Made by a program: the position numbers and the translations under genes. Below the pieces are notes generated by a model. The model had not been told where the DNA came from. It made no database searches and saw nothing but the letters and a program-made list of their open reading frames with translations. Shown one piece after another: positions 2,970 through 64,000 of a stretch of DNA of 64,000 nt (within the stretch, counting starts at the first letter, position 1; every line of letters starts with the position of its first letter). The DNA comes from Escherichia phage ESCO5: sequence record NC_047776.2, one strand, 5' to 3'.

Positions 2970-4031
2970 ATGGCGAAGCCAATATATTATCCTGACTGGG
3001 CTACACAAACTGTAACGCTCCCAGGAACTTTAAACACAAACAAAATTAGACCTAAAGAAACCATCCGCACAATTGGTATGGATTATGGTCAAATCATGAC
3101 TTGCGAAGAAATGAACTGGATTCTTAATAATATCGGTTTATGGATTCGCTATTTGGTGGATGACTTTCTTCCAACTTTACCTGATACTTACTTGCCTTTA
3201 ATTGGAACTAAGATTACAATGGCAGGTGATGCTACTGGTGAGGCTACTTGGAATGGTAATAAAGAAGTTACTTTATCTATCCAAGTTCAAGATAATAGTC
3301 ATAATCACTTGTCGGCAAACATTACAGATGCCACTAGTTCAACAGTAACACCAAACGTGTTGGTAAAACGTGATGCAGGTGGTGCTATTTACGGTGGTGA
3401 TATTTATGTTAATGGCACTTCCACAACAGATCCTGCAACACTGTTCTTCAAAAACTTTGCAGGACAAACGAATGGTGAGATTTCTGCCGAGTATCAAAGC
3501 GGAGGTCAGCTTTACATCTATCGTAGAAATCCTAGCACAGGTAGTGTATCGGCAGGTGTTCGTTTATATGATGCAGGTTATGTTCTAATAGATAATCCAA
3601 GATCAAACAGTGGACAAGACACTTCTAACGGAAATGCTTTAGTTCGTTTAGATTATCTGAACTCTCGTTTGACTTCCCTTCAGAATACATTGCAGACGAA
3701 TATTAACACTGTTCAAAACAACTTGAATAATGTTAACAACAACCTCTCTTCTCGTATAAACAATGTAGAAAGTAATCATCAAAGTCAGATTACAAATAAC
3801 TACAACTATGCTAACGGAACCTTTGTAAGAGATATTCGTTATACTAGCCAAGGTGTGTATTATCCACCAGGGAACGAGGTTTCTTGGACTTATATCTGTT
3901 CTTCTGGTTATGTTCTTTCTGGTATTATCGTACAGGAAACAGGACGTAGCTCTGCGGATAACATCGGTGGGGTTTACTTCAAACGCCTCCAGCGCAACGT
4001 TAACGGAAACTGGTACGATATTGGAGGCTAA
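2970..4031 (+). CDS. tail fibre protein
   Basis: 353 aa with N/Q-rich heptad-like segment (NTVQNNLNNVNNNLSSRINNVESN) and Gly/Ser/Thr-rich C-terminal part; sits in the fibre gene block. Confidence 0.5.
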   Translation: MAKPIYYPDWATQTVTLPGTLNTNKIRPKETIRTIGMDYGQIMTCEEMNWILNNIGLWIRYLVDDFLPTLPDTYLPLIGTKITMAGDATGEATWNGNKEVTLSIQVQDNSHNHLSANITDATSSTVTPNVLVKRDAGGAIYGGDIYVNGTSTTDPATLFFKNFAGQTNGEISAEYQSGGQLYIYRRNPSTGSVSAGVRLYDAGYVLIDNPRSNSGQDTSNGNALVRLDYLNSRLTSLQNTLQTNINTVQNNLNNVNNNLSSRINNVESNHQSQITNNYNYANGTFVRDIRYTSQGVYYPPGNEVSWTYICSSGYVLSGIIVQETGRSSADNIGGVYFKRLQRNVNGNWYDIGG

Positions 4032-51130: not shown

Positions 51131-52269
51131 TGAAATACACTATTTTTGGAGATGTGGCTGTTGTAAATAAGGAATATGGCGTTGAAGCTAATAAACTTCC
51201 TGCTGGAGTTTGGGTTGTCAACTGCGATCCGCACGGTAACTACTCTTTAGTGCGTGGTGAAAGTTTCTCTCTTCCGAACACTCTTTATGGGGAAACTAAA
51301 GACCGCGCCGCACATGTTATTAAAACATTTGCTCGTCGTAGTAAAGAAGGTAAAAATACTGGGGTGTTACTGACAGGGACAAAGGGCAGTGGTAAGACGA
51401 TGTTAGCTAAACTGATTAGCATGTCCCTAATGTCCACAGAAGGTTTAGGTATTCCAACCATTTTGGTGACACAGCCTTACACAGATGCTGGATTCTTAGA
51501 ATTTATGAGCAAAATTACAGATCGTGCTGTTGTTTTATTTGACGAGTTTGATAAAGTGTACGCTAAGAAAGAAGATCAGGAAGCACTGTTGACCTTGTTG
51601 GATGGAACAGGAAGTGGAAATAAACTTTACATCCTCACTAAAAATAGTGGCTATATCTCGGAATATTTTGTAAACCGTCCTAGTCGTATCTATTACAGTT
51701 TCAATTACGATAAACTGTCTAGTGAAACTATGTTAGATTACTTGGATAAGAACTTGGTAAATAAAAAACACGTAGATAACTTCCAACGTTTATGGGATGT
51801 TAGCACAGAGTTGTCTTTCGATGTTATTCAAGGCATTGTAGAAGAATTGAATTTCTATCCAAAAATGACTTTTAAAGAATGTCTTGAAATGATGGGTATT
51901 TCTTTAGGGAACGATGCTAAATGGAATGTGGCTTCTATCGTAGCTAATGGCAAAACCTTGAAGGTGAATTGGATCAATAACTGGCACGACTTCACCCCTA
52001 CTAAGTTTTTGTCGGGTGCTTGTTCCCTGAACATCTATCTACAAAGTTTGAAAGATGATGAAGTGGAAGCAATGGAAACCAACAGTTATGTTATCCTGGA
52101 TGAAGATGGTGATCCACATATTGATCTATGTGCAACGGCTGATGGTCTAACTTGTGATCTGATTGAAGGTGGTAAGATTCTGGTTATGAGCACTACACCA
52201 GGAAACACTCTGCGAGTGGTGCTGGAGCCTGTAACACAACGTTCCACCACACTGGGTAGCGTGTTCTAA
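51130..52269 (+). CDS. AAA-family ATPase
   Basis: 379 aa; Walker A LLTGTKGSGKTMLAK and Walker B VVLFDEFDK. Confidence 0.65.
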   Translation: MKYTIFGDVAVVNKEYGVEANKLPAGVWVVNCDPHGNYSLVRGESFSLPNTLYGETKDRAAHVIKTFARRSKEGKNTGVLLTGTKGSGKTMLAKLISMSLMSTEGLGIPTILVTQPYTDAGFLEFMSKITDRAVVLFDEFDKVYAKKEDQEALLTLLDGTGSGNKLYILTKNSGYISEYFVNRPSRIYYSFNYDKLSSETMLDYLDKNLVNKKHVDNFQRLWDVSTELSFDVIQGIVEELNFYPKMTFKECLEMMGISLGNDAKWNVASIVANGKTLKVNWINNWHDFTPTKFLSGACSLNIYLQSLKDDEVEAMETNSYVILDEDGDPHIDLCATADGLTCDLIEGGKILVMSTTPGNTLRVVLEPVTQRSTTLGSVF

Positions 52270-52274
52270 TAAAG

Positions 52275-52300
52275 ATGCCCCGCAAGGGGCATTTCTTATA
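52275..52300 (+). terminator. terminator-like hairpin
   Basis: atgcccc-gcaa-ggggcat hairpin followed by ttcttata. Confidence 0.45.
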
Positions 52301-52310
52301 GGATGAAATC

Positions 52311-53519
52311 ATGAGTAAAGCTAAAAGTTGGGAAGAATATAAAGCAGAATGCGAGATCATAGCTCTCTCTAAAGGATATAAAATTTTAGGCCATAAAGAA
52401 TGGAAAGGGTGTGAGACTAAACTCCTGATAGAATGTCCTGTGCACGGTGTATGGGATACTTGTAAAATATCTAACTTTAAAAGTGGGAAGTCTTGCCCTT
52501 CTTGTGGTGAATTAACAAAAAGGGAGAAGAGAACGAAGAGCAGAGAGGACCAAGAGAAAGAGTGTGAAGAAGAAGCGTTAAAAAGAGGTTGGCGCTTCTT
52601 GGGTATCTACGGAGAATGGCTGAAAGCTAAAAAGACACGAGTAATCTTACGTTGTGATAGGGGTCACGAGTTTAACACATCTACCATAGACAACTTTAAG
52701 AATAATAAACAAGGTTGTCCAGTTTGTCGTTTAGAGGATATAGGTAAACACAATAAGCTTTCAGACGATCAGCACATACAAGATTTCATGAGTACGGGTG
52801 TGTTTCCCGAAGGCACTACCTTCACTAATACAGGGGAAAAAGCTGGGAGGAGCGAAATACTTTGGAGTGTATTTTGCCCTATCTGTGCTATAGATGAGTT
52901 TTCCAAAGCTGGGGTAGGAACGGGATATTTTATCGGTAGAGGTAGTTCATTAAAACAGGGTATGCGCCCTTGTCGTTGTTCTGCCAGTTACAAATATTCT
53001 GAAGAAGAGATGACATTTAGAGCAAAAAGTGACGTAGAACGTAGAGGGTACGTGTGGTTGGGGTGGATTGGGAAAGCTTCTATACTTGGGGATTTTGAAT
53101 ATGGTTGCAAGGATCATGGGAAACATGTGTGTAGTGCTAACAATTGGTTAAATAAGGGGTGTGGTTGCCCTGGTTGTGCAGGTATGAATCAACAACAAGC
53201 CTACATTAATTATATTTACGATGAGCAAGATATTATCTGTGCACTGAAGTTTGGTATTGCTAATAATAGTAATCGCCGTATGAAAGAACAAAATAGTCGT
53301 AATGTGTTTACTATGAAACAGAGCCAAGTGTGGCACTTCCCTACTGTGAAGCAATGCAAAGATGCAGAAAAGCGTTGTAAGCGTGTCCTTCACACGGAAG
53401 CAGTGAGCAAATATTCTATGCCAGATGGCTACACAGAGACAGTGGAGTTATCTTGCATGGCATCAATACAAAATATTTATAAACTTTATGGTGGAACATT
53501 ACAGGAGGAAACATGTTAG
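52311..53519 (+). CDS. multi-zinc-ribbon protein
   Basis: 402 aa; at least four C-x2-H/C ... C-P-x-C-G/R units (CPVHG...CPSCG; CDRGH...CPVCR; CPICA...; CKDHG...CPGCAG). Confidence 0.5.
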   Translation: MSKAKSWEEYKAECEIIALSKGYKILGHKEWKGCETKLLIECPVHGVWDTCKISNFKSGKSCPSCGELTKREKRTKSREDQEKECEEEALKRGWRFLGIYGEWLKAKKTRVILRCDRGHEFNTSTIDNFKNNKQGCPVCRLEDIGKHNKLSDDQHIQDFMSTGVFPEGTTFTNTGEKAGRSEILWSVFCPICAIDEFSKAGVGTGYFIGRGSSLKQGMRPCRCSASYKYSEEEMTFRAKSDVERRGYVWLGWIGKASILGDFEYGCKDHGKHVCSANNWLNKGCGCPGCAGMNQQQAYINYIYDEQDIICALKFGIANNSNRRMKEQNSRNVFTMKQSQVWHFPTVKQCKDAEKRCKRVLHTEAVSKYSMPDGYTETVELSCMASIQNIYKLYGGTLQEETC

Positions 53520-53878
53520 TTGACGTTCAAATTATGCGCAACGAAAGAATGGACTTCTTTGAAGCAGTAGAGAAACATCTGATCCGATGGGACTATGAAT
53601 TTGTTCCTGCTGGATGTGGACCAGTAGAGCATTTAGCGGAAGACGACGATGTATACATGATCATTCGTCAAGTGTACCAGACAGACCAGTGTGAAGAAAC
53701 TCCCGAACTGATTTTGTTTGAGTGTAAAGATCTTGCAAAATATTTTGACTATGGTGGAAAAGAGGGTCATAATCTCTCCAGATACAATAAACGTCTACTT
53801 ATCTTAGACTACATGCGGAACAACAAACACAAACTCATCGACGCAGACGCAGTTTATGGCTACTGGTGGATGGACTAA
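53513..53878 (+). CDS. hypothetical protein
   Basis: 121-aa ORF. Confidence 0.5.
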   Translation: MLVDVQIMRNERMDFFEAVEKHLIRWDYEFVPAGCGPVEHLAEDDDVYMIIRQVYQTDQCEETPELILFECKDLAKYFDYGGKEGHNLSRYNKRLLILDYMRNNKHKLIDADAVYGYWWMD

Positions 53879-53891
53879 CAAAGGAGAAACT

Positions 53892-54071
53892 ATGGCACGT
53901 TTAGCAGACCATGAAATCTTTAAACCTATTCTGAACCACTATGATGAACTTAAGGCAGTGTTGGATTGTTATAGAGAGGATGAAGAACGTTTGGAAGTGA
54001 ATCTTAAGATAGTTCTGATGAAAGCTTTTCAAGACGGGCAAGCTGAAGTCTTAGGAGGCATGAAAAAATGA
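53892..54071 (+). CDS. hypothetical small protein
   Basis: Start placed at the ATG after AAGGAGA (MARLADHEIF...). Confidence 0.45.
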   Translation: MARLADHEIFKPILNHYDELKAVLDCYREDEERLEVNLKIVLMKAFQDGQAEVLGGMKK

Positions 54072-54610
54072 GAATAACTGATGAATATGTATTCTTCTTT
54101 TCACATAAAGATGTGTTTAGTAATTGGTATATTGCACCCTTTACAGAAACCGAACCAGGTTACAATCAGACATTTAATTGTGTCGAACAATACATGATGT
54201 GGCGTAAAGCTTTGCTTTTTAATGACCACAACACGGCACAGGCTATTCTGACTCATAGTTTGATACGGAAAGATGAGAAGATCCAAGCTTATTACAAACG
54301 TATGGGTAGGGCAGTGTCAGATTTTGATAACAACGTATGGGAAGAGAACCGTGAGCGTATTGTTATGCGAGGTTTATGCTTGAAATATGTACAGAATCCA
54401 GATTTGTATGCAGACTTACACCTTTACCAATACAAAACGTTTGTTGAAGCAAGTCCTTACGATAAGGTTTACGGTATTGGAATGGGAATGTATGAACCAG
54501 GGGTGCTAAATCCGGTCAACTGGAAAGGGCAAAATCTTTTAGGTAAATATCATAACAAACTGATCGAAATACTTTTCCCAGACAAAATACCGCAAAGACG
54601 ATATTTGTGA
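54068..54610 (+). CDS. NADAR-domain (YbiA-like) protein
   Basis: 180 aa; FSNW, CVEQYMMWRKALLFND and WEENRERIVMRGL align with the YbiA/NADAR pattern (FSNF ... EHYFQAQKF). Confidence 0.6.
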   Translation: MRITDEYVFFFSHKDVFSNWYIAPFTETEPGYNQTFNCVEQYMMWRKALLFNDHNTAQAILTHSLIRKDEKIQAYYKRMGRAVSDFDNNVWEENRERIVMRGLCLKYVQNPDLYADLHLYQYKTFVEASPYDKVYGIGMGMYEPGVLNPVNWKGQNLLGKYHNKLIEILFPDKIPQRRYL

Positions 54611-54852
54611 TATTTTAACTTTTTTCATTTTTAGAACAAAGGCGTCACTTTGTAGCACAGAAATAAGGCTCCTACAGCACCGTAGAGAGCCTATTATTTT
54701 GTCCTATACAAACCCTTGTCTTTTTCAGTTTGCATCACTAGGATTCGATCTGAGTGGGTTCCTGAAGGTCTGCCAATAAGATTAAAGGTTATCTCAAATT
54801 CCCACTACCTATTATCTCAAAAATCCCTCAAATTATTTAAACTTTTTAAGAA

Positions 54853-55038
54853 TTTACAAAAGTGAAAGTTGAAAACCAAAATTTAAAGTTTAGGAAAATT
54901 ATCTTAAAATGTCAGATACAAAACAAAACTCAAAAGTCAAGGAAAATTTTAAAAATTTTGCGCGCCCACAGTATTTAAAGTTTTTTTGCTTTTACAAAAA
55001 TGAAAGTACAAAAGCAAAATTTAAAGTTTACAAAAATT
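54853..55038. repeat. iteron-like imperfect direct repeats in an AT-rich non-coding region
   Basis: About 48-bp units at 54853-54900 and 54991-55038 (roughly 42 of 48 identical), with a degenerate third copy between them. Confidence 0.5.
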
Positions 55039-55050
55039 TATGCAGATGGG

Positions 55051-55166
55051 AATGAGAAGAGTTCTCATATGGAAATGCAAATGATAATGATTCGCATTTA
55101 GGTTTATAAATGAGATTGATTCTTATTTGATAAGGTAAATGATAATCATTCTCATTTAGAGAATGA
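55051..55166. promoter_or_regulatory. array of four palindromic operator-like sites, two closely matching the Fur-box 7-1-7 pattern
   Basis: ATGAGAA-gag-TTCTCAT (55052-55068); TGATAATgATTCGCA (55082-55096); aaatgagattgattcttattt (55108-55128); TGATAATcATTCTCA (55140-55154) with TCATTCTC/GAGAATGA inverted repeat; spacing about 29 bp. Confidence 0.45.
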
Positions 55167-55415
55167 CGCGCAGGGGCGGTGTTTGTCTCGCGCTCCCGTG
55201 TCCCCTCGCCATGTAATAAGAATAACAGATCCAGCCAGGAAAGCAAGCGATTATTTTATCTTTACATTTCTTTACAAATATATAGCGCCCAGCCTACCGG
55301 CGATCAACCTTCCAACCAGCGCCCTGGTATGTTAGCCCCGCCTTTACGCCGTGGGGGTGGCGCTTCCTCTTCTGTATGTAAAACAGTATAAGCCCGATCC
55401 CTGGGCTTGTCAAGA

Positions 55416-55682
55416 TTATTTTTTGTTTTCTTGCCAGGATAGGACACCTAACCAAAAATGCATATCGCCCCGCGCCCCTGGTGGGATCTTGCTTTCCCCG
55501 CCGCCACTGCAAGCCCATAAATAACCATCAGCGAACGGATCAAAGTTTTCTATTTCTTCCACCTTATGATCGCCCAGGTTGAGAACTGTTTCAACCTTTA
55601 AGCCCGTTGCGCTTGCTACCTGGTGCACCGTGCCGCCTTGCCAGCCTAATGAGTGCATAAGGTGTAATGTAGTATTCGTCAT
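55416..55682 (-). CDS. hypothetical protein in a GC-richer segment
   Basis: 88-aa ORF on the - strand with codon composition visibly GC-richer than the rest of the window; weak RBS. Confidence 0.35.
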   Translation of the reverse strand: MTNTTLHLMHSLGWQGGTVHQVASATGLKVETVLNLGDHKVEEIENFDPFADGYLWACSGGGESKIPPGARGDMHFWLGVLSWQENKK

Positions 55683-55790
55683 GGTGTCGCCCTTTCTTTG
55701 TTGTGCGCCCTGGTTGGCGCGGTAGAAAGATGATAGCCCTTTCTTTTATATATAGCAAGCAAAAAGAAAATAAAAAGATTGAAAAAGTGA

Positions 55791-55849
55791 TTGACGTTCG
55801 CCAGGTGGCGGCATAATATTTACCACGTAGGGCGGCAATGGTGCCGCTC
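55791..55849 (+). promoter_or_regulatory. promoter plus 5' stem-loop cassette
   Basis: TTGACG-N17-TAATAT then ttaccacgtaGGGCGGCAatggTGCCGCtca hairpin just downstream of the -10. Confidence 0.55.
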
Positions 55850-55868
55850 ATTATTTGGAGTTAAAATC

Positions 55869-56066
55869 ATGGCAACATTGCACATTGTGGCGAAAGCTGG
55901 ACAAATAAACGTGGTAGTAAACGGTTTTACTGAGTTCAGTCATCCCCAGGATGATCATGAAACGGTTTTATCTTTCATTGATTCTCTGTTAGAAATGGGA
56001 GTCATTACAGAAGACCAGCACGCTACAAAATGCAAGCGCGTTAATCAAATTGCAGGGATAGAATAA
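55869..56066 (+). CDS. hypothetical small early-type protein
   Basis: 65 aa from the ATG after GGAG; the track start at 55791 lies inside the promoter. Confidence 0.5.
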   Translation: MATLHIVAKAGQINVVVNGFTEFSHPQDDHETVLSFIDSLLEMGVITEDQHATKCKRVNQIAGIE

Positions 56067-56073
56067 AAAGTAT

Positions 56074-56131
56074 TGACAACAAACAACAACCTGATAAGAT
56101 GTATCACATAGGGCGGCGGAATGGTCCACCG
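56074..56131 (+). promoter_or_regulatory. promoter plus 5' stem-loop cassette
   Basis: TTGACA, -10-like TAAGAT, then atagggcggcggaatggtccaccgc hairpin; the ctgataagatgtatcacatagggcggcgga segment recurs at 57531. Confidence 0.5.
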
Positions 56132-56157
56132 CTCACAACAGAAGAGAGATTATAATC

Positions 56158-56430
56158 ATGGCATCATATAGCGCAACAATGATCGTAGCTGGCACCACTG
56201 GTAAACCTATGAGCGGTGGCGGATCTTTCGCAAATATCAACATTGACGGGCGTTTATCCCTGGACGCAGCGATCACCGTGGCGCGGGAAACATTTAAGAA
56301 AGAATGTAAATTCAATAAACAAGATTATCTCGGTTTTGCTATTGAAAAAACCGCGCGCTTTGTTGATTATAAAAGCCCGAAGATGGTTGATACTACACTA
56401 AAAGCGCAAGATGTAGCGTTTTTGCTTTAA
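56158..56430 (+). CDS. hypothetical small early-type protein
   Basis: 90-aa ORF. Confidence 0.5.
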   Translation: MASYSATMIVAGTTGKPMSGGGSFANINIDGRLSLDAAITVARETFKKECKFNKQDYLGFAIEKTARFVDYKSPKMVDTTLKAQDVAFLL

Positions 56431-56434
56431 GGCT

Positions 56435-56489
56435 TGACATTAACGAATAATTTGTTAATATGTTACATAAAGCGGGAATAGTTCCCGCT
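56435..56489 (+). promoter_or_regulatory. promoter plus 5' stem-loop cassette
   Basis: TTGACA, TTAATAT, hairpin agcgggaa-tag-ttcccgct. Confidence 0.5.
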
Positions 56490-56506
56490 ATTTGTAAGGT
56501 GGTAGA

Positions 56507-56764
56507 ATGTTTTACATCAAATTAAAAGGTCACGTGATCGCGTTCAAAGATAACGCTTTTTACAGATTAGCAAAATATGCGTTAATACATCCCCACTATG
56601 TTTATATAAGGGGGCGTGATGAAATAAATATCTTTGATCAAACAACATGCGAGAACATCGAGATCCGCAAGGTTGGCGTACGTGATTATCGTACATCTTT
56701 CTACCCTTGCAAGGATTCAGCAAGTCTTTTTAAAGTATGCCAATTGTTGAAAAAAGGTGGTTAA
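56507..56764 (+). CDS. hypothetical small early-type protein
   Basis: 85-aa ORF. Confidence 0.5.
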   Translation: MFYIKLKGHVIAFKDNAFYRLAKYALIHPHYVYIRGRDEINIFDQTTCENIEIRKVGVRDYRTSFYPCKDSASLFKVCQLLKKGG

Positions 56765-56765
56765 T

Positions 56766-57323
56766 ATGGGCCGCGAATATGTGATCCAGTCTTGGGTAAA
56801 ACATGAAGCAGATGATCCGCGCATCATTCCCGATCATCTTATCGATGAATCCACGGGATATAGCGGTGAGCAAATAGGTAACAGATTAGCACGTAGTAAC
56901 GGCAACGTAAAAGCGCGTTATGTGCGCCCTGGCTGGCTGGCAAATGGTAACGCTGATTTATCCAGTGCGGAAGATGCGAGCGACGGCGCGAAAGATAATC
57001 CTTTGTACAAAGTTGATCCGGCTTTTCGTGTCCTGGATGAATACCCCAGCAAGATAGCGGCGCTCGATCAGGCCCTGGAAAGTCAGCGCATCACCTGGAC
57101 CGCTTACAACATGGCAAAAAACGTACTTGATGGTAAATTGATTCAAGCTGAAAGAAAATTAGCCAAAATTGCAGCCATAGCCCAGGAGGAAGACGAGGAG
57201 ACAACGGAAGAGGAAGAGTACGAAGAGATCCCGCCGTTGTTGTGTGTTGATGCTTTTCCTGATTATCAGCCGACAGAGGAAGAAAAAAGGATCGCACTAG
57301 AAAACTTTGAAAATAGTCTTTGA
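56766..57323 (+). CDS. hypothetical protein with strongly acidic C-terminal region
   Basis: Start placed at the ATG after GGTGG; C-terminal EEDEETTEEEEYEEIPP. Confidence 0.5.
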   Translation: MGREYVIQSWVKHEADDPRIIPDHLIDESTGYSGEQIGNRLARSNGNVKARYVRPGWLANGNADLSSAEDASDGAKDNPLYKVDPAFRVLDEYPSKIAALDQALESQRITWTAYNMAKNVLDGKLIQAERKLAKIAAIAQEEDEETTEEEEYEEIPPLLCVDAFPDYQPTEEEKRIALENFENSL

Positions 57324-57376
57324 CATATCGCCGCCACTGGCATAATATTTACCACGTAGGGCGGCAATGGTGCCGC
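57319..57376 (+). promoter_or_regulatory. promoter plus 5' stem-loop cassette
   Basis: TTGACA-N17-TAATAT plus the same ttaccacgtagggcggcaatggtgccgctca leader as at 55821 and 60166. Confidence 0.55.
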
Positions 57377-57404
57377 TCATAGTGAAATTATGCAAGAGGC
57401 TTAC

Positions 57405-57500
57405 AATGATTAATAAAGGAAATAGCTTGACGGTTGGAACGATTAACGCTATCATTCTCGCCGTTCCATTTTGGGTTGTAGTAGCGGCTATTATTTTCTA
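57405..57500 (+). CDS. hypothetical 31-aa hydrophobic peptide
   Basis: Only ORF available downstream of the cassette before the next promoter (MINKGNSLTVGTINAIILAVPFWVVVAAIIF). Confidence 0.3.
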
Positions 57501-57510
57501 AAAAATATTC

Positions 57511-57563
57511 TTGACAACGTTTTTTAATCTGATAAGATGTATCACATAGGGCGGCGGAATACT
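57511..57563 (+). promoter_or_regulatory. promoter plus 5' stem-loop cassette
   Basis: TTGACA, gataagat, hairpin gggcggcggaatacttccccgcc. Confidence 0.5.
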
Positions 57564-57592
57564 TCCCCGCCAAAACAAAAAAGGGTAACACA

Positions 57593-57955
57593 ATGAGCAA
57601 GCAAATCAATACTATCATGTTAAACCTGGTATCCTTCCGCGATGATATGAAAAATTTACCACGTGAAACGGTTGATATTCATGTTTCAGCTTATCGCGCC
57701 CTTATTGACATGTTACCGCTAAAACGTGATCAACATGCCGCTAATATGATGCTTAATGCTATGCTTAAAAAAATGATTCAAACGGATCTCACTCTGGCGT
57801 ATGAGTATCAAGGGCGCTTATATGCAACTTACAACAAGGCGGTACCTGGTCTGGGAAGTACCGAAGAGTTGCACGGCTTAAACCTGGATCAAAACACTTG
57901 GGATAGTATGCGCCGCGTTATGGTATGGGCCGAAAGCGGTAAAATTTACGAATAA
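57593..57955 (+). CDS. hypothetical early-type protein
   Basis: 120-aa ORF. Confidence 0.5.
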   Translation: MSKQINTIMLNLVSFRDDMKNLPRETVDIHVSAYRALIDMLPLKRDQHAANMMLNAMLKKMIQTDLTLAYEYQGRLYATYNKAVPGLGSTEELHGLNLDQNTWDSMRRVMVWAESGKIYE

Positions 57956-57961
57956 AAACGG

Positions 57962-58022
57962 TTGACACTGTTTAAAATTCTAGTATAGTTTACCACATAG
58001 GGCGGGAAGTGGTTTCCCGCCA
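57962..58022 (+). promoter_or_regulatory. promoter plus 5' stem-loop cassette
   Basis: TTGACA-N16-TATAGT, hairpin ggcgggaa-gtggt-ttcccgcc; leader nearly identical to the one at 58748. Confidence 0.55.
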
Positions 58023-58043
58023 ACAATGAAAAAGGTTATCATC

Positions 58044-58409
58044 ATGGCTATTAATATTAATGTTTCCTCTTATGCTACCCTGGCTAACACGGCTAAAATT
58101 GAATTATCCAGCATTGAGGCGGTGCATATTAGCGCCCGTCGCTGGTTTCAACAGTCCTACGGTAACACATATTTTTCTTTAATGGTTGACGTTGAGATCG
58201 GCGGCAAACTGATTGAAGTGGTAAACGTGCCGTTCCAATATGGATACGGGGATCACTTTGACACTGTAGCAATGGAAGAATTTAGCAAGGTTATTAATAT
58301 GGAAGGTAAAGAGTTTTCACGCGGCGAGTATCTTTCCCGTTTTTGCCGTGACAATGGGATCACTGTATACAGTCATGCAAGCGATGTTAAACGTAAAAAA
58401 GATCTATAA
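58044..58409 (+). CDS. hypothetical early-type protein
   Basis: Start placed at ATGGCT by analogy with the duplicated leader at 58830 (aaaggttatcatcATGgct). Confidence 0.5.
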   Translation: MAININVSSYATLANTAKIELSSIEAVHISARRWFQQSYGNTYFSLMVDVEIGGKLIEVVNVPFQYGYGDHFDTVAMEEFSKVINMEGKEFSRGEYLSRFCRDNGITVYSHASDVKRKKDL

Positions 58410-58415
58410 AAAGCA

Positions 58416-58476
58416 TTGACAGCACGAATAAAAAGAGTAAACTGTATTACATAGAGAGCGGGAACACTTCCCGCCT
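58416..58476 (+). promoter_or_regulatory. promoter plus 5' stem-loop cassette
   Basis: TTGACA, weak -10, hairpin agcgggaa-cac-ttcccgcc. Confidence 0.45.
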
Positions 58477-58498
58477 CACTGAAAAAGAGAGAAAAATC

Positions 58499-58738
58499 AT
58501 GGCTAAATCTAAAATTTACAACGGTCACAAAAACAAAACTCATTGGAATGTAAGCCTTTGGATCAACAACGATGAAGGTTTTTATAATCTTGCGCGTGAA
58601 TTTATTGCAGCTAACACCAATAAGAATGACGCAGCGCGTGATATGATGTTATTTCTTGAAAGTATGGATCAAGATAAAACGCCAGACGGTTACAAGTTCA
58701 GTAAAACTGCAATCCGTGCCGCTATGGTAGGAATGTAA
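58499..58738 (+). CDS. hypothetical small early-type protein
   Basis: 79-aa ORF. Confidence 0.5.
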   Translation: MAKSKIYNGHKNKTHWNVSLWINNDEGFYNLAREFIAANTNKNDAARDMMLFLESMDQDKTPDGYKFSKTAIRAAMVGM

Positions 58739-58747
58739 TAAAATAGC

Positions 58748-58807
58748 TTGACACTGATTTTTATTCTGGTATAGTTTATCACATAGGGCGGGAAGTGGTT
58801 TCCCGCC
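58748..58807 (+). promoter_or_regulatory. promoter plus 5' stem-loop cassette
   Basis: TTGACA-N16-TATAGT, hairpin ggcgggaa-gtggt-ttcccgcc. Confidence 0.55.
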
Positions 58808-58829
58808 AAATCAAAGAAAGGTTATCATT

Positions 58830-59057
58830 ATGGCTATCGTTATTGTTCGCGTATCCGGCACGGTTGGAATCTCCCAGGTAGTAGCAGTTATCACCGAGAA
58901 GAAAGGGGATGATCTTCACTCTTCCTTGAATAGCTGGGCGGTCGCTAACTTCGGGCAATGGTCGAGCGTCGAGTACATCGAATCCTACCAGGTGCCGACG
59001 ATTAGCCTAACCGATCTCAACGTTGATCGCTTGTTGTGCCTGGATGAATTAATCTGA
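58830..59057 (+). CDS. hypothetical small early-type protein
   Basis: 75-aa ORF. Confidence 0.5.
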   Translation: MAIVIVRVSGTVGISQVVAVITEKKGDDLHSSLNSWAVANFGQWSSVEYIESYQVPTISLTDLNVDRLLCLDELI

Positions 59058-59067
59058 AAAAAGATTA

Positions 59068-59124
59068 TTGACACCGGAAAGAAAAAGAGTAGAATATATT
59101 ACATAGGGCGGCAATGGTGCCGCT
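59068..59124 (+). promoter_or_regulatory. promoter plus 5' stem-loop cassette
   Basis: TTGACA-N16-TAGAAT, hairpin gggcggcaatggtgccgc. Confidence 0.55.
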
Positions 59125-59146
59125 CACAACTAAAAGAGAAATCATC

Positions 59147-59341
59147 ATGGCGCTTAAAAAACTAACAAGCAATACTCGTTGGGATGAAATTGACGGGGAA
59201 GTATACATTTTCGCCCGTAAACCAGGTGATCAAAAATGGTCAAAGGCTTTTACTTGCCACCCTGCAACAATAGACCTGATAAAAAGGGAAGGTTTACGTG
59301 AAGCGGTAGCAAGAAGTTTACTGATCCCTTATAAAAAATAG
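59147..59341 (+). CDS. hypothetical small early-type protein
   Basis: Start placed at the ATG (MALKKLTS...); the track start at 59114 lies inside the hairpin. Confidence 0.5.
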   Translation: MALKKLTSNTRWDEIDGEVYIFARKPGDQKWSKAFTCHPATIDLIKREGLREAVARSLLIPYKK

Positions 59342-59342
59342 T

Positions 59343-59405
59343 TTGACAATATGCTGTTATCTGGTAAAGTGTACGACATAGGGCGGGGCAATAAGGCAAC
59401 GCCCA
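59343..59405 (+). promoter_or_regulatory. promoter plus 5' stem-loop cassette
   Basis: TTGACA, TAAAGT, hairpin gggcg-gggcaataaggcaa-cgccc. Confidence 0.45.
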
Positions 59406-59422
59406 TTAATGAGGGTAGAATC

Positions 59423-59527
59423 ATGTTAGAGAAAATTTTCACGGTTGTAATAGTTGGCCTGGCGTTATCGGTTGGATTGGTTGCAACTATGGCTAACATG
59501 ATCCTATCTTCCCACGGTATTGGATAA
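59423..59527 (+). CDS. hypothetical 34-aa membrane peptide
   Basis: First ORF after the cassette (MLEKIFTVVIVGLALSVGLVATMANMILSSHGIG). Confidence 0.3.
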   Translation: MLEKIFTVVIVGLALSVGLVATMANMILSSHGIG

Positions 59528-59537
59528 GGTGAATCAA

Positions 59538-59753
59538 ATGATCACGAATAAGACAGGTAAAACAGAATTTTTACGCGGCTTGCAAATAGGTAAACCTGAG
59601 ATCTGGCATTGCACTAAATCCGCGCATAATGAAATGAAAGATTTTACCGCTACTTTACAACGTGTTAAAATATCTATCACACAGAAAAAAGCCTTGTTAG
59701 TAGTAGAAAACGAGATCCCGCAAACTATTATTATTGTCGAGCGTACAGCATGA
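59538..59753 (+). CDS. hypothetical small early-type protein
   Basis: Start placed at the ATG after AAGGTG (MITNKTGK...). Confidence 0.45.
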   Translation: MITNKTGKTEFLRGLQIGKPEIWHCTKSAHNEMKDFTATLQRVKISITQKKALLVVENEIPQTIIIVERTA

Positions 59754-60136
59754 AAACAGAAATCATTATTGAAATCATCAACGGCTATAAAGAAGCCTTT
59801 ATTTTTGCTGAATCAGCAAGGGATCATGAAGGTAATTTTATTGATAACTTAGACGATTATGATTTTTCTCCTAGCGCGGACGAACGGATCGCCCAAGATG
59901 TAACAGCCTTTATTAATGCTAATCTTGCCGCTATCTCTGAGGCAATGAGCGACGGCGCAACAGCCAACCAGATCGGGAATGATTTACATTTTACCCGTAA
60001 CGGTCACGGCGTAGGCTTTTGGGATCGCCCTGAAATATACACCACTAACACGGCGAACCGCCTAACCAATGCAGCTAAGTTTATGCCGAACGTGTCGGCT
60101 TACATTGGTGAAGATAATTTGATTTATATTGAATAA
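59750..60136 (+). CDS. hypothetical early-type protein
   Basis: 128-aa ORF; ATGA overlap with the upstream gene. Confidence 0.5.
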   Translation: MKTEIIIEIINGYKEAFIFAESARDHEGNFIDNLDDYDFSPSADERIAQDVTAFINANLAAISEAMSDGATANQIGNDLHFTRNGHGVGFWDRPEIYTTNTANRLTNAAKFMPNVSAYIGEDNLIYIE

Positions 60137-60142
60137 AAAGTA

Positions 60143-60254
60143 TTGACACAGATCGCCAGTGTGCTAATATTTACCACGTAGGGCGGCAATGGTGCCGCTG
60201 ACACAGATCGCCAGTGTGCTAATATTTACCACGTAGGGCGGCAATGGTGCCGCC
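60143..60254 (+). promoter_or_regulatory. tandemly duplicated promoter plus stem-loop cassette
   Basis: TTGACA at 60143-60148; the 55-bp unit gacacagatcgccagtgtgctaatatttaccacgtagggcggcaatggtgccgc(t/c) occurs twice head-to-tail (60145-60199, 60200-60254). Confidence 0.6.
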
Positions 60255-60272
60255 GATAATGAGGAAAGTAAA

Positions 60273-60572
60273 ATGGAAACTATCGCTATTGTTACCGTAG
60301 AAAAACTGGTTGTTGGTGATGTATTCGCGTTAATGGTGCCTAACAGCAGCAAGCTGGGCGCTTATGAAGTAATGGATCATAAAAATGAATCATTTGGCGA
60401 CGGTTGCACAATGGCGGTAAAATCTTTAAAGGATGGAATCATCCGCCAGGCTAACTGGCACAAAGGGAATCAAGTCGGTTTAATATCAGCTAATTTCTTG
60501 CCAGAAGAGCAAACGTTAGACCAACTATCAGGCGGTAAGACGTTAGCCGAACTACTGGAAACAGCGATCTAA
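60273..60572 (+). CDS. hypothetical early-type protein
   Basis: 99-aa ORF with RBS GAGGAAAG. Confidence 0.5.
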   Translation: METIAIVTVEKLVVGDVFALMVPNSSKLGAYEVMDHKNESFGDGCTMAVKSLKDGIIRQANWHKGNQVGLISANFLPEEQTLDQLSGGKTLAELLETAI

Positions 60573-60580
60573 TCAACAAA

Positions 60581-60596
60581 GGGGCGGCAACGCCCC
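60581..60596 (+). promoter_or_regulatory. intercistronic GC stem-loop (no -35/-10 recognised)
   Basis: ggggcg-gcaa-cgcccc between two genes, no U-tract; likely RNA stability or processing element. Confidence 0.4.
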
Positions 60597-60616
60597 ACAT
60601 CAGAAAGGAAAAGATT

Positions 60617-60853
60617 ATGAGTATTGCAACAGTATTAAACGCCGTTAAAACCGCTGAATCATCCGGCTTGCATGTTGAGCTTATAGATCAACCAGGTGGC
60701 GATCTCCTTGTCCAGGTTTACCCGCCGAAAGTAGGGGATGATTATTATTGGGCTTATTCTGATACGTTCGAACAAGTAGACACGAAAGCGATCACGGCTT
60801 TTATTTTAAAAACTATTGAAGAAAATAACTTTCATCATAACATCAATCAATAA
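60617..60853 (+). CDS. hypothetical small early-type protein
   Basis: 78-aa ORF. Confidence 0.5.
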   Translation: MSIATVLNAVKTAESSGLHVELIDQPGGDLLVQVYPPKVGDDYYWAYSDTFEQVDTKAITAFILKTIEENNFHHNINQ

Positions 60854-60863
60854 ACCATAAGCG

Positions 60864-60879
60864 GGGCGGTAACGCCCCA
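60864..60879 (+). promoter_or_regulatory. intercistronic GC stem-loop
   Basis: ggggcg-gtaa-cgcccc, same type as at 60581. Confidence 0.4.
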
Positions 60880-60907
60880 TTAAACGCAATAGGAAGAGGA
60901 TAGACGC

Positions 60908-61198
60908 ATGAAAAAGATGATCGCAGTAGTTGCCCTGGTTGTTGGTATTAACGCGCCTGTACTGGCTAATGAGTTGCCAGAATCCATCACGCTAACCGAT
61001 ATCAACGCAATAAACCGGATCGGCGTTAATTATCGCCTATGCCTTGCCGCTAAAACTTTCCAGGACGGCACGACAGAATACCACGGATTCGAGGGTATCC
61101 GCTGCGGTGAGCTTGCACGCGACCTTAAGGAAGATCCAGACCTTGAGGCCATACCGATGACCGTAAACGGTAAAGCTTACGTAAACCGCCAACAATGA
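60908..61198 (+). CDS. hypothetical secreted protein
   Basis: 96 aa; N-terminal signal-like MKKMIAVVALVVGINAPVLA. Confidence 0.5.
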   Translation: MKKMIAVVALVVGINAPVLANELPESITLTDINAINRIGVNYRLCLAAKTFQDGTTEYHGFEGIRCGELARDLKEDPDLEAIPMTVNGKAYVNRQQ

Positions 61199-61215
61199 GA
61201 AAGGTAATCATCACA

Positions 61216-61329
61216 ATGGGGATCGTAGTAGCAACGCTGGCGCTTATCCCCTTCATGGTTGAACATGTGCTGATCAGTGTTGTCCTTGTAGTCAGTGACC
61301 TATTGGAAACGGTTGGCACCTGGTTTTAA
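61216..61329 (+). CDS. hypothetical 37-aa membrane peptide
   Basis: RBS AAAGGTAA then ATG; hydrophobic product; followed by a terminator-like hairpin. Confidence 0.3.
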   Translation: MGIVVATLALIPFMVEHVLISVVLVVSDLLETVGTWF

Positions 61330-61334
61330 GATAA

Positions 61335-61366
61335 TAAATAGGGCTTGCAATAGTCCTATTTTTTGT
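61335..61366 (+). terminator. terminator-like hairpin with T-run
   Basis: Imperfect hairpin tagggc...gtccta followed by ttttttg. Confidence 0.35.
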
Positions 61367-61503
61367 TATACTTATTGAACGGGCGGCACCTGGGAGCAGG
61401 GGAAGATAATCACCGGAAGACCCCGCTATATATTGATAACTAACGCCTATCAAACAACAAAACATCAAAGGAACAAACTATCAAATCTTTACAATTCTAC
61501 CTA

Positions 61504-61562
61504 TTGACACCGGATCACGCTTACATTATTATTTATCACGTAGGGCGGGAATGTTTCCCGCC
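61504..61562 (+). promoter_or_regulatory. promoter plus 5' stem-loop cassette
   Basis: TTGACA-N17-TATTAT, hairpin ggcgggaa-tg-tttcccgcc. Confidence 0.55.
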
Positions 61563-61580
61563 TGATTTAGGAGTCATATC

Positions 61581-61814
61581 ATGATCGAACAAATTAAAAG
61601 CACTAAACCAAATGTTAACGGTAATGTTTCTCACTTTATCGGGGATAATGAAAGAGGTACACCGTACGCCGCCGTAACCGTTCAACCGAACGGGGATTAT
61701 TGGTTTACCGTGTACGGATCTTACTCTTTTGGACGTTCGGCACATGATAAGATCTTGCAAGTGGTTAAGCCTACTGGGAAGAATATCACAGCAGAAAAAT
61801 TTTATAAAAAATAG
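61581..61814 (+). CDS. hypothetical small early-type protein
   Basis: 77-aa ORF with RBS AGGAG. Confidence 0.5.
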   Translation: MIEQIKSTKPNVNGNVSHFIGDNERGTPYAAVTVQPNGDYWFTVYGSYSFGRSAHDKILQVVKPTGKNITAEKFYKK

Positions 61815-61815
61815 C

Positions 61816-61875
61816 TTGCTTTATAGCTCCTGTTAACTTATAGTTATTGCGTAGGGCGAGCAATACAGCAAGCCC
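61816..61875 (+). promoter_or_regulatory. promoter plus 5' stem-loop cassette (variant)
   Basis: TTGCTT-N17-TATAGT then gcgtagggcgagcaatacagcaagccc. Confidence 0.45.
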
Positions 61876-61892
61876 ACAAAGAGGAAAATAAA

Positions 61893-62261
61893 ATGAGCAA
61901 ATCAGCAATTAAAGCACTTGAAAAAGCACAAGAAGTGATCGCAACGTCAACCACTGGCGCAAAGGTTAATCTCGTTTGTTATCTGACAGATGAAACTATC
62001 CGTAAAAATTGGCGTAATGCTGATTTACTGGCTTGCTTATTGATTAATAGTGTCGCTAATGCTTTCCAGTGTGAAACAGCCGAGAGCCTGGAGGAAAACT
62101 TGTTTGATAATATGGATCAAGCCATTGAAACCTATATACAATCAAACCTGGATAGCTGGAACAGTAAAACATGGCCCGACAATTTACGCGATACAACTGA
62201 TCAACTGATCCGCCTTGCCCTGATGGTTGAACGCGATAACGTTCACAACCGCACAAAGTAA
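61893..62261 (+). CDS. hypothetical early-type protein
   Basis: 122-aa ORF with RBS AGAGGAAA. Confidence 0.5.
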   Translation: MSKSAIKALEKAQEVIATSTTGAKVNLVCYLTDETIRKNWRNADLLACLLINSVANAFQCETAESLEENLFDNMDQAIETYIQSNLDSWNSKTWPDNLRDTTDQLIRLALMVERDNVHNRTK

Positions 62262-62326
62262 GATTATACAAGGGCGCACTAAGCGCCCTTTAACGTAAAG
62301 AAATGTAAATAATGCGCTATCCCCTA

Positions 62327-62355
62327 TTGACAGGGGATCGGCGTTATATTATATT
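62327..62355 (+). promoter_or_regulatory. sigma70-like promoter (TTGACA-N17-TATATT)
   Basis: The -35 sits in a small palindrome cccctattgacagggg; preceded by hairpin agggcgcactaagcgccct at about 62270-62290. Confidence 0.5.
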
Positions 62356-62400
62356 TAACTCACTGGCAGCAAACAACGAAATGAAACAAAGGATAACAAC

Positions 62401-62820
62401 ATGAACATTAAATCAAATAATCCGGCTTACTCTTTCGATAATGCTTTTTGTCACGGGAGCGCCGCTAAAGGCTTCGAAATTGAGGGTAAGCTGGTTATTG
62501 TGAACGTTGACGGGGAAGAGGTTGCAGTATATCCGGCAAACGATGTTAAAAGCCGTCTACAATGCCGCATGGATGTTACCGCATATCAGCTTGATCCGAT
62601 CCGTGTAGTTGCCCTGGTCCTGGAGGAAGAGATCAAAGCAATGCATCATAGCAATAAGTTTATTGGTGACGCGCAGGACAATATGAAAGTATGCCGCAGT
62701 AAAGTTAACGAAGCATTGAAAGAATACGGTTTTAAGGATCTGATGATTAAACGTGATGAAAAATTCCGCTTTCGTAATGACCTGGCGAACCGGATCTACT
62801 CAATCTATGAAGCGTTATAA
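62401..62820 (+). CDS. hypothetical early-type protein
   Basis: 139-aa ORF, last gene before the terminator and the non-coding region. Confidence 0.5.
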   Translation: MNIKSNNPAYSFDNAFCHGSAAKGFEIEGKLVIVNVDGEEVAVYPANDVKSRLQCRMDVTAYQLDPIRVVALVLEEEIKAMHHSNKFIGDAQDNMKVCRSKVNEALKEYGFKDLMIKRDEKFRFRNDLANRIYSIYEAL

Positions 62821-62834
62821 TTGACAACAAAACA

Positions 62835-62862
62835 AGGGCGCACCAAGCGCCCTTTCTTTTTG
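62835..62862 (+). terminator. rho-independent terminator
   Basis: agggcg-caccaa-gcgccct hairpin followed by ttctttttg. Confidence 0.65.
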
Positions 62863-63069
62863 CCCGAACAATGTTGATAGATTCCGCCTATGAAAAACCG
62901 ACACAGAACAAAATTGCATAATTTGCGCTATCGAGCTAATCAACCAGCAAACGAATAACCATACACCCCAGGGTTACAGGCTGTTAGAGAGCTATTTAGA
63001 GCGGTTAAAATCGATCAACAACCAACAACAAACAACCGAAAAAGGCTGTTTTCTTCCTTTCCAGTGCAA

Positions 63070-63084
63070 TGATAACCATTATCA
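63070..63084. promoter_or_regulatory. Fur-box-like 7-1-7 palindrome
   Basis: TGATAAC-C-ATTATCA matches the Fur 7-1-7 consensus (tGATAATnATTATCa) at 14 of 15 positions. Confidence 0.4.
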
Positions 63085-63139
63085 TCTACCCTTGCGTATC
63101 TATACAATATAAGTGCATAACTATAATGTTGATAATAGT

Positions 63140-63330
63140 TCGCAACAACTAACCAACCAACAACCTAAAACAATAAGCAAACTAATCATAATCAAAGGAA
63201 TAATAGCAAGATGATTGATAACGACAAACAATCAAACCATGATGAATACTAAGCAAGATAACGATAACACGACAAAACAACCAACTAACGAACAATAACA
63301 AACGAAACCATTAAAATAATAACTATTAGC
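63140..63330 (+). repeat. A+C-rich strand-skewed low-complexity region (non-coding)
   Basis: About 190 bp made almost entirely of A and C with few G or T (caacaactaaccaaccaacaacctaaaacaataagcaaac...); no ORF. Confidence 0.5.
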
Positions 63331-63480
63331 AAAATAGTGCCTGAATGAAATCATTACAAAACGAATCATTCACAGAGTCATCATTAGCACGCTATGCCGG
63401 ACACATAGCGAGCTAATAATAAGCCAACTACACCCCAACAATCATAACCATCGGTGACGGTTATTTCTTGTTACTGCGTA

Positions 63481-63499
63481 GCTTGCAATAATTGCAAGC
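63481..63499. repeat. perfect 19-bp palindrome
   Basis: gcttgcaat-a-attgcaagc. Confidence 0.6.
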
Positions 63500-63823
63500 G
63501 TAATGACGCTTACACTTATTGCGCTGGCTTATTATTAGCATTATATGTAATTACCAAGATCATAACATTAGCGCAATAACAATAATCATTGTAATGATTA
63601 TGTAAGGAAACAATTAGCATGGCAATAATTATGGGGGCAATGGGAGGATGATTATCATCATTCCGATACATTGCACACTATGCACATAATAGAATAAAAG
63701 TCAATAATTTTGGGGGCGAAATGTTACCGCCACAGGCGGGAATGTTGAGCAAGTTCTCTTAAACGTAAATAAAATCAGAAAATTCTTGATTTATTTTGGC
63801 TTTTATGTTAATAAACGTTTAAA

Positions 63824-63838
63824 TAATAATCATTCTCA
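63824..63838. promoter_or_regulatory. Fur-box-like palindrome
   Basis: TAATAAT-C-ATTCTCA, same half-site (ATTCTCA) as at 55140-55154; related sites at 63581-63601 and 63648-63663. Confidence 0.35.
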
Positions 63839-64000
63839 TATAAATAATAGTCTGCTTGTCATGAGCGGGATTAGTTGACATTGTTCCGTCATATGATGAA
63901 GTTGCCAAACCATTGATAAATAAGTGTTTGTGTGATTTATAATCAAGTGGCCCACCTTGTCGCTATGTTGGCATGAGCCTTGCATAAGTCATTGAATACG

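Follow-up and report, generated by a model that had tools for sequence, protein, structure and literature searches.

A 55-bp head-to-tail duplication of a promoter–hairpin unit among candidate PeSL-like cassettes in the early region of Escherichia phage ESCO5

Structure of the duplicated unit

The window analysed here is a 64,000-nucleotide stretch of Escherichia phage ESCO5 (NC_047776.2), to which all coordinates refer unless another record is named. Two genes on the + strand flank the locus, both of unknown function: upstream a 128-aa gene at 59750..60136 (the homologue of phAPEC8_0011, phrog_1915) and downstream a 99-aa gene with an ATG start at 60273-60572 (the homologue of phAPEC8_0012, phrog_22684). 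Between them lie two copies of a 55-bp unit, head to tail on the + strand, copy 1 at 60144..60198 and copy 2 at 60199..60253. Tandem Repeats Finder reports 60144-60253 as one array with a period of 55, 2.0 copies and 100% matches, and its score of 220 is the highest of the 26 arrays in the window. The window contains exactly two copies of the 55-mer, with 0 mismatches, and no match turned up in 100 dinucleotide shuffles. At the edges of the repeat, the base in front (T60143) does not match the one that ends copy 1 (C60198), nor does the base behind (C60254) match the one that opens copy 2 (T60199), so the duplication is exactly 55 bp and blunt-ended, with a microhomology of 0 nt; boundary microhomology of the kind that slippage would leave was looked for at both duplication ends, and the overlap there was 0 nt. 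The original prediction had described a perfect 55-bp tandem duplication that places two -10 elements and two stem-loops before one gene. Tandem Repeats Finder and the exact 55-mer count bear out the repeat, and the promoter scan and folding bear out the elements; the interval it gave, 60145-60254 with a last base of t/c, is the same repeat in a register one base off from 60144-60253.

Copy 1, together with T60143, forms promoter P1 (+ strand), in which the promoter scan places the -35 TTGACA at 60143-60148, a 16-nt spacer, the TG at 60162-60163 and the -10 TAATAT at 60165-60170, with a predicted start at ~60176-60178. Copy 2 forms promoter P2 (+ strand), with the -35 CTGACA at 60198-60203, again a 16-nt spacer, the -10 TAATAT at 60220-60225 and a predicted start at ~60231-60233. 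Both score as sigma70-like with a TG-extended -10 (TGc-TAATAT). The stop codon of the 128-aa gene sits within an A-rich tract, TAAAAAGTA, that precedes P1; P2 is without such an upstream tract and has lost the first T of its -35 (CTGACA, weaker), the DNA upstream of copy 2 being the G+C hairpin of copy 1.

In each copy the 8-mer TAGGGCGG starts 8 nt past the -10, at 60179-60186 in copy 1 and at 60234-60241 in copy 2 (both + strand), and leads into a hairpin at 60182-60199, whose final base is the first base of copy 2, and at 60237-60254, respectively. Both hairpins (+ strand) fold as GGCGGCA-AUGG-UGCCGC(U/C), at ~-12.5 to -14.2 kcal/mol, and with the start set ~7 nt past the -10 the hairpin is predicted to begin 4-6 nt from the mRNA 5' end. 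The Shine-Dalgarno sequence GAGGA of the 99-aa gene follows at 60261-60265 (+ strand). Folding z-scores for single leaders are only -2.0 to -2.6. The P1 leader, with two hairpins in 97 nt, has a predicted fold that pairs the Shine-Dalgarno region weakly and, with z = -1.24, is no stabler than shuffles.

A family of promoter–hairpin units in the early region

The duplicated unit has many sisters: in total, 13 units occupy 5.7 kb (55.8-61.5 kb), all on the + strand, each preceding an ORF of 24-190 aa. The window has 11 exact TAGGGCGG sites where 0.54 would be expected, and every one of them is on the + strand within 55.8-61.5 kb; 2 of the 13 units (56434 and 58416) have a degenerate 8-mer and keep the hairpin. 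The common layout begins with the upstream stop codon in an A-rich tract, TTGACA, 16-17 nt and the -10, and continues with 8 nt (consensus tTAyCACr), TAGGGCGG and the hairpin, 10-25 nt, a Shine-Dalgarno sequence and the start codon. The A-rich tract that holds the upstream stop codon is present at copy 1 and at the sister units and absent at copy 2; in the promoter scan the sister-unit promoters score 10-11 of 12 against the sigma70 consensus.

From left to right along the + strand, sister units lie at 55791..55849 (TTGACG-17-TAATAT, then TAGGGCGG and a hairpin identical to that of the duplicated unit), 56073..56134 (variant hairpin GGGCGGCGGAATGGTCCACCGCTC), 56434..56489 (degenerate motif ATAAAGCGGG, hairpin retained), 57320..57378 (-10, leader and hairpin as in the duplicated unit), 57511..57571 (variant hairpin), 57962..58021 (hairpin GGCGGGAAGTGGTTTCCCGCC), 58416..58477 (degenerate motif CATAGAGAGCGGG, hairpin retained), 58748..58807, 59068..59125 and 59343..59404. 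The homology of several relatives begins inside the unit at 59068..59125 (at 59090 and 59097), and that of most relatives at or inside the unit at 59343..59404 (59332-59379). The genes next to the units belong only to PHROG families of unknown function, or to no family. Between the unit at 57320 and that at 57511, the sole plausible coding sequence is a possible mini-gene for 24 hydrophobic aa at 57427-57501, with a TTG start, TVGTINAIILAVPFWVVVAAIIF after the initiator and an AAGGAAA Shine-Dalgarno sequence ahead of it.

All 13 units fold into hairpins of -12 to -15 kcal/mol with a G+C stem of 7-8 bp, and the stem-loop always lies 10-12 nt past the -10, a fixed distance that locates it in the transcribed leader. 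Across units and phages the outer stem varies by compensatory substitutions (C:G to G:C; CA/UG vs GAA/UUC vs GAAA/UUUC), giving stems such as GGCGG-CA/UG-CCGCC, GGCGG-GAA/UUC-CCGCC and GGCGG-GAAA/UUUC-CCGC, and the folding energy is held at -11 to -16 kcal/mol despite these changes. The compensatory changes were taken from individual folds, a MAFFT alignment of 16 distinct hairpins having lost the register of the 3' arm. Together with the steady folding energy, they argue that the hairpin is under selection, and likewise the sequence of its 5' arm; TAGGGCGG is conserved even in one phAPEC8 unit where it is unpaired. Rfam covariance models gave no match at E <= 1 in 52000-64000, and ARAGORN found no tRNA or tmRNA. 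A role of the hairpins as intrinsic terminators was judged unlikely, given that they have no T run and lie downstream of their own promoter; a T-rich tail comes after just 1 of the 13.

Alleles at the junction in related phages

The window is 93-98% identical to Phapecoctavirus genomes (phAPEC8, Schickermooser, ESCO13 and others), and by this similarity its phage is a Phapecoctavirus, a phAPEC8-like myophage of the Stephanstirmvirinae. Phages labelled Campylobacter, Acinetobacter, Pseudomonas, Serratia and Klebsiella are 94-98% identical here to E. coli phapecoctaviruses, and those host labels may not mirror true host differences. In phAPEC8 (JX561091) a single orthologous unit, identical in sequence to one window copy, lies between phAPEC8_0011 and 0012. 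The record annotates its positions 3165-3201 as a "putative host dependent promoter determined with MEME" (TATTGACACAGATCGCCAGTGTGCTAATATTTACCAC) and the directly adjoining positions 3202-3221 as a "putative promoter determined with PHIRE" (GTAGGGCGGCAATGGTGCCG).

For a census of alleles, a 321-bp query across the repeat was compared with phage records; the best 60 of the 130 records found were sorted by inter-gene length, and the sorting was checked by reading 17 sequences. Among these best 60, one unit with a spacer of 87 nt is the allele of 38 records, and 18 have unit 1, a 63-aa ORFan (ORF63) and a second unit, with a spacer of 359-361 nt. Two further records have ORF63 with different downstream DNA (no spacer value), and the tandem, with a spacer of 142 nt, is found in two, OQ031492 and PP129558. 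With the window, the tandem is known in three genomes. The intergenic spacer of 142 nt in the window compares with 87 nt in eight single-unit genomes in which it is otherwise identical. The second unit of the ORFan allele has a differing promoter (TTGATC...TTATAT) and an identical hairpin, and the junction between presence and absence of ORF63 falls in the common 21-nt hairpin motif. A function for the flanking genes and for ORF63 was sought in Pfam and PHROGs, and none was found there.

The two other tandem records are not copies of the window. In OQ031492, copy 2 differs at 5 positions, 4 in the -10/leader and 1 just upstream of the -10, and is chimeric: its -35 and spacer are those of unit 1, and its -10 and leader (TTATATTTAATGC) are those of the ORFan allele's downstream unit, a combination absent from both the single-unit allele and the ORFan-bearing one. 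In PP129558 a run of Ns covers precisely the tandem junction, which may reflect a mixed population or weak read support. At 1654-1668 of PP129558.1 (vB_EcoM_01) these Ns are broken by a few called bases, and both OQ031492.1 and PP129558.1 are flagged as partial or UNVERIFIED; flags and Ns together suggest consensus trouble or a mixed population at the repeat.

The exact tandem junction is present in only one other phage record and had 0 matches in IMG/VR, the JGI metagenomes and the GTDB genomes. Searching with a promoter 20-mer gave 3 relevant metagenome contigs, two single-unit and one ORFan-bearing, so that the tandem was seen in 0/3; a search for the locus of the upstream gene gave 3 close IMG/VR relatives, the other 36 loci being too distant to inform. 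In four redundant JGI contigs (L056, L057, L059 and L061) the exact 20-mer TGACACAGATCGCCAGTGTG sits in surroundings that are otherwise unrelated; given the very large size of the database, this is probably a chance match. The flanks of the three tandem genomes differ from one another by ~2.5-3.3%, and those of the window are nearest to the ORFan-bearing B15 (9 differences/903 bp), then to ZCKP1 (14). In the comparison of flank SNPs the three tandem genomes are not mutual nearest relatives, a result that fits a single or a multiple origin.

Gene gain and loss at other units

A second two-unit arrangement on the + strand, at 61504..61865, consists of a promoter, a TAGGGCGG hairpin, a 77-aa ORFan (ORF77, 61581-61814, + strand), a weak promoter, a CGTAGGGCGAGC hairpin and ORF122. 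In phAPEC8, which is without ORF77, the second hairpin directly follows the same promoter, and the junction falls within the 9-nt CGTAGGGCG. Over 61504-61892, ORF77 sits between two units that bear TAGGGCG, and in ETEC-TG other DNA replaces it.

Two promoter-less G+C hairpins on the + strand, GGGGCGGCAACGCCCC at 60581-60596 and GGGGCGGTAACGCCCC at 60863-60878, flank a 78-aa ORFan (ORF78, 60617-60853, + strand). ETEC-TG is without ORF78, one hairpin remains there and the junction lies inside the hairpin; hairpins alone therefore also mark the breakpoints of indels. The two hairpins share the form GGGGCGG(C/T)AACGCCCC. The ends of homology to relatives also fall at units: in the 30 best megablast hits, the left ends at 59090, 59097, 59332-59343 and 59378-59379 lie within, or just ahead of, the units at 59068-59125 and 59343-59404.

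Comparison with known systems

The array recalls the promoter-early stem-loops (PeSLs) of the T4-type phages RB49/phi1, PST and nt-1 (Arbiol et al. 2010, PMC2839356; Comeau et al. 2014, PMC4122927). A PeSL consists of a stop codon in an A-rich tract, an early promoter of sigma70 consensus, a GGGG...CCCC stem-loop, a Shine-Dalgarno sequence and a start codon. The stem-loop is found at several positions, including just downstream of the -10, which make up five positional classes, and PeSLs are concentrated in hyperplastic regions around ORFans, where recombination between cassettes gives rise to indels and mini-circles (PMC2839356, PMC4122927). The window units have in common with PeSLs the stop codon in an A tract (in the window at copy 1 and the sister units), the sigma70 early promoter, the G+C stem-loop (GGG...CCC), the Shine-Dalgarno sequence and the start codon, as well as the many repeats in a region of small ORFans and the insertions, deletions and replacements of genes in close relatives that break in the cassettes.

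The differences are also clear. PeSLs were defined in T4-type (Tevenvirinae-like) phages, whereas the window comes from a myophage of the Stephanstirmvirinae; the stem-loop has a fixed position in the leader in the window, while PeSLs fall in five classes; and the window units have an invariant 8-mer, TAGGGCGG, ahead of the stem or at its beginning. PeSLs are known for terminator activity and mini-circles, whereas the window units are known from sequence alone. A head-to-tail pair of cassettes with no gene in between is absent from the PeSL papers, and the word "tandem" occurs 0 times in PMC2839356. Since the window phage belongs to the Stephanstirmvirinae and is not T4-type, we call the units PeSL-like for their architecture and behaviour, with no claim of descent. 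Read in this way, the array would be one of PeSL-like cassettes, new for the Phapecoctavirus group. No literature was found that ties PeSLs to rV5-, phi92- or phAPEC8-like phages or gives the transcription starts of these phages, and the rV5 genome paper reports only sigma70-like promoters. The promoter pair annotated in phAPEC8 is the orthologous unit at the same junction, but it is present in one copy, and the hairpin half is annotated as a phage-specific promoter and not as a transcribed hairpin.

We believe that the context is of more value than the duplication itself: a regular family of promoters with 5' hairpins at which isolates gain and lose genes, as at PeSLs in T4-type phages. It offers a simple guide to the mosaic early regions of phapecoctaviruses, which are widely isolated and are candidate therapeutic coliphages. 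The units would also be compact natural promoter/leader parts, predicted to be strong, and the one-copy, two-copy and gene-bearing alleles at one junction make a tractable system for recombination and for 5' hairpins.

Two other comparisons concern the leader and the promoters. Emory, Bouvet and Belasco are said to have described, in 1992, 5'-terminal stabilising hairpins of E. coli mRNAs of the ompA leader type, for which 4-6 unpaired 5' nucleotides are reportedly at the edge of known mRNA protection. The window units similarly have a stable hairpin ahead of the ribosome binding site, a few nt into the predicted transcript; however, the start in the window is only predicted, 4-6 unpaired nt may be too many, and the 5' arm in the window is conserved in sequence, which suggests that more than the structure is constrained. 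Closely spaced tandem sigma70 promoters are known both in nature (rrn P1/P2) and as engineered repeats of core promoters. As in the rrn P1/P2 type, two co-directional promoters serve one gene in the window, but their spacing is only 55 bp, so that polymerase footprints would overlap, copy 2 is without the upstream A tract, and the arrangement is a rare allele and not a conserved design.

Origin of the duplication

We consider it likely, within the PeSL-like proposal as a whole, that these 110 bp represent a real duplication of a cassette, head to tail. Because the ends are blunt and without microhomology, the tandem would have come from one illegitimate copying event, a blunt 55-bp duplication in a single-unit genome being the simplest route, and stalling of replication at the hairpin is one possible trigger. 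A junction without microhomology is not the product expected from homologous recombination between cassettes. The copies would be young or else homogenised, and the corresponding suggestion in the original prediction is plausible. The chimeric copy 2 of OQ031492 points, on its sequence, to a more complex history.

A scar of cassette loss is a rather unlikely alternative, in which a two-unit allele lost ORF63, the gap was filled in on the template of unit 1 and the copies were later homogenised. It would account for the -10 and leader of the ORFan allele's downstream unit (TTATATTTAATGC) that copy 2 of OQ031492 retains, at the price of two or more events. Hairpin 1 is followed by T, which the ORFan allele also has there (the single-unit allele has C), but this T is equally the second T of TTGACA. 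The flanks nearest to those of the window, B15 and ZCKP1, again point to the ORFan-bearing allele, an argument that is weak because phage flanks are mosaic, and among the alleles sorted and read there was no intermediate in which the spacer of unit 2 directly follows hairpin 1.

Proposed function and expression

A simple duplication of a promoter–hairpin unit remains our preferred reading. We propose that the units drive early transcription through the host RNA polymerase, that each early mRNA would gain a 5'-terminal hairpin, which on the predicted starts and folds would most likely guard it against 5'-end-dependent decay, and that the units could supply short patches of homology for the shuffling of genes. 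In the tandem, both P1 and P2 could fire, since a TG-extended -10 lessens the dependence on the -35; P2 would give the normal mRNA, and P1 transcripts with two hairpins and a 97-nt leader. With CTGACA in P2, no A-rich tract and polymerases that overlap at 55 bp, the effect on the 99-aa gene would be modest or neutral, and by this model the net effect of the tandem on expression is probably small. The duplication is a rare and probably near-neutral allele of an early promoter that the phAPEC8 record already annotates.

The main role of the hairpin might instead be that of an attenuator or insulator, as proposed for PeSLs, or of a site for a protein or recombinase, in which case the tandem would double such a site. 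By analogy, PeSL stem-loops cut reporter expression like a strong terminator (PMC2839356); in the window, however, the hairpin lies downstream of its own promoter without a T run, only 1/13 units passes a scan for terminator-like sequences, and a terminator there would abort the transcript of the unit itself. The conservation of TAGGGCGG in the phAPEC8 unit where it is unpaired and the breakpoints that fall in the motif even with only 9 nt in common would also fit this alternative, but no candidate binding protein was identified, and we regard both forms of this alternative together as unlikely.

Somewhat less probable is a selected change in dosage, in which the second promoter was kept for raising or retiming the expression of the 99-aa gene and those that follow it, for instance on a particular host. 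Both copies retain all promoter elements including the TG-extended -10, yet P2 is missing the A-rich tract upstream and the initial T of its -35. The identity of the copies fits recent selection or homogenisation and the arrangement is present in three genomes with different flanks, but the allele is rare (2 of the best 60 records, 0/3 metagenome contigs with this promoter). The gene that would profit is without known function, and the long P1 leader has the weak pairing of the Shine-Dalgarno region noted above, with a z-score of only -1.24.

More speculative still, and very improbable, is the analogy in which TAGGGCGG and the hairpin form a recognition site, either for a recombinase of attC-like hairpins or for an RNA-binding regulator or nuclease of early mRNA. 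The breakpoints in the motif with only 8-9 nt in common and the 8-mer conserved where unpaired would fit such a site, and phAPEC8 gene 0049 is annotated as a "putative site-specific recombinase". If this were true, a lytic phage would have in its early region an integron-like array of gene cassettes that bear promoters, and the tandem, which has no ORF, would be a product of the "empty cassette" kind.

Authenticity of the duplication

The original prediction had left room for an assembly artefact and had proposed a comparison with related isolates as a check. This comparison found the tandem at the same junction in two non-identical Phapecoctavirus records, and since the second copy of OQ031492 is diverged and chimeric in an independent assembly, expansion or collapse of the repeat by an assembler cannot explain it. 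An assembly or consensus artefact, in which the phage is single-copy and its repeat was expanded by the assembler, is extremely unlikely: the 100% identity of the copies, the Ns of PP129558 exactly at the tandem junction and the exact junction in only one other phage record (0 in IMG/VR, JGI metagenomes and GTDB genomes) would suit it, but a repeat of 110 bp is shorter than ordinary reads and so is not a typical source of mis-assembly, OQ031492 has the same junction with a copy 2 that differs at several positions and is a chimera present in neither other allele, and the arrangement is common to three assemblies with different flanks.

Other features of the window

Just upstream of the first unit, in an apparently non-coding stretch of ~1.1 kb (54.7-55.8 kb), three ~29-bp copies of a repeat (aAATGATAATGATTCtCATTTAg) lie at 55079-55160 (Tandem Repeats Finder score 87). 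They resemble what we take to be the E. coli Fur-box consensus, GATAATGATAATCATTATC. Short "tttaaagttt" repeats are found at 54.85-55.04 kb. On the other side of the array, a strong promoter at 62327-62355 has no hairpin downstream, and 62900-64000 is AT-rich, has no long ORFs and appears to match an unannotated gap of phAPEC8 at 5.5-7.0 kb. Far from the early region, 8837-9485 contains runs of 9-bp and 18-bp repeats with GGT-rich codon triplets, a pattern that suggests a collagen-like Gly-X-Y segment of a structural gene, probably a tail fibre.
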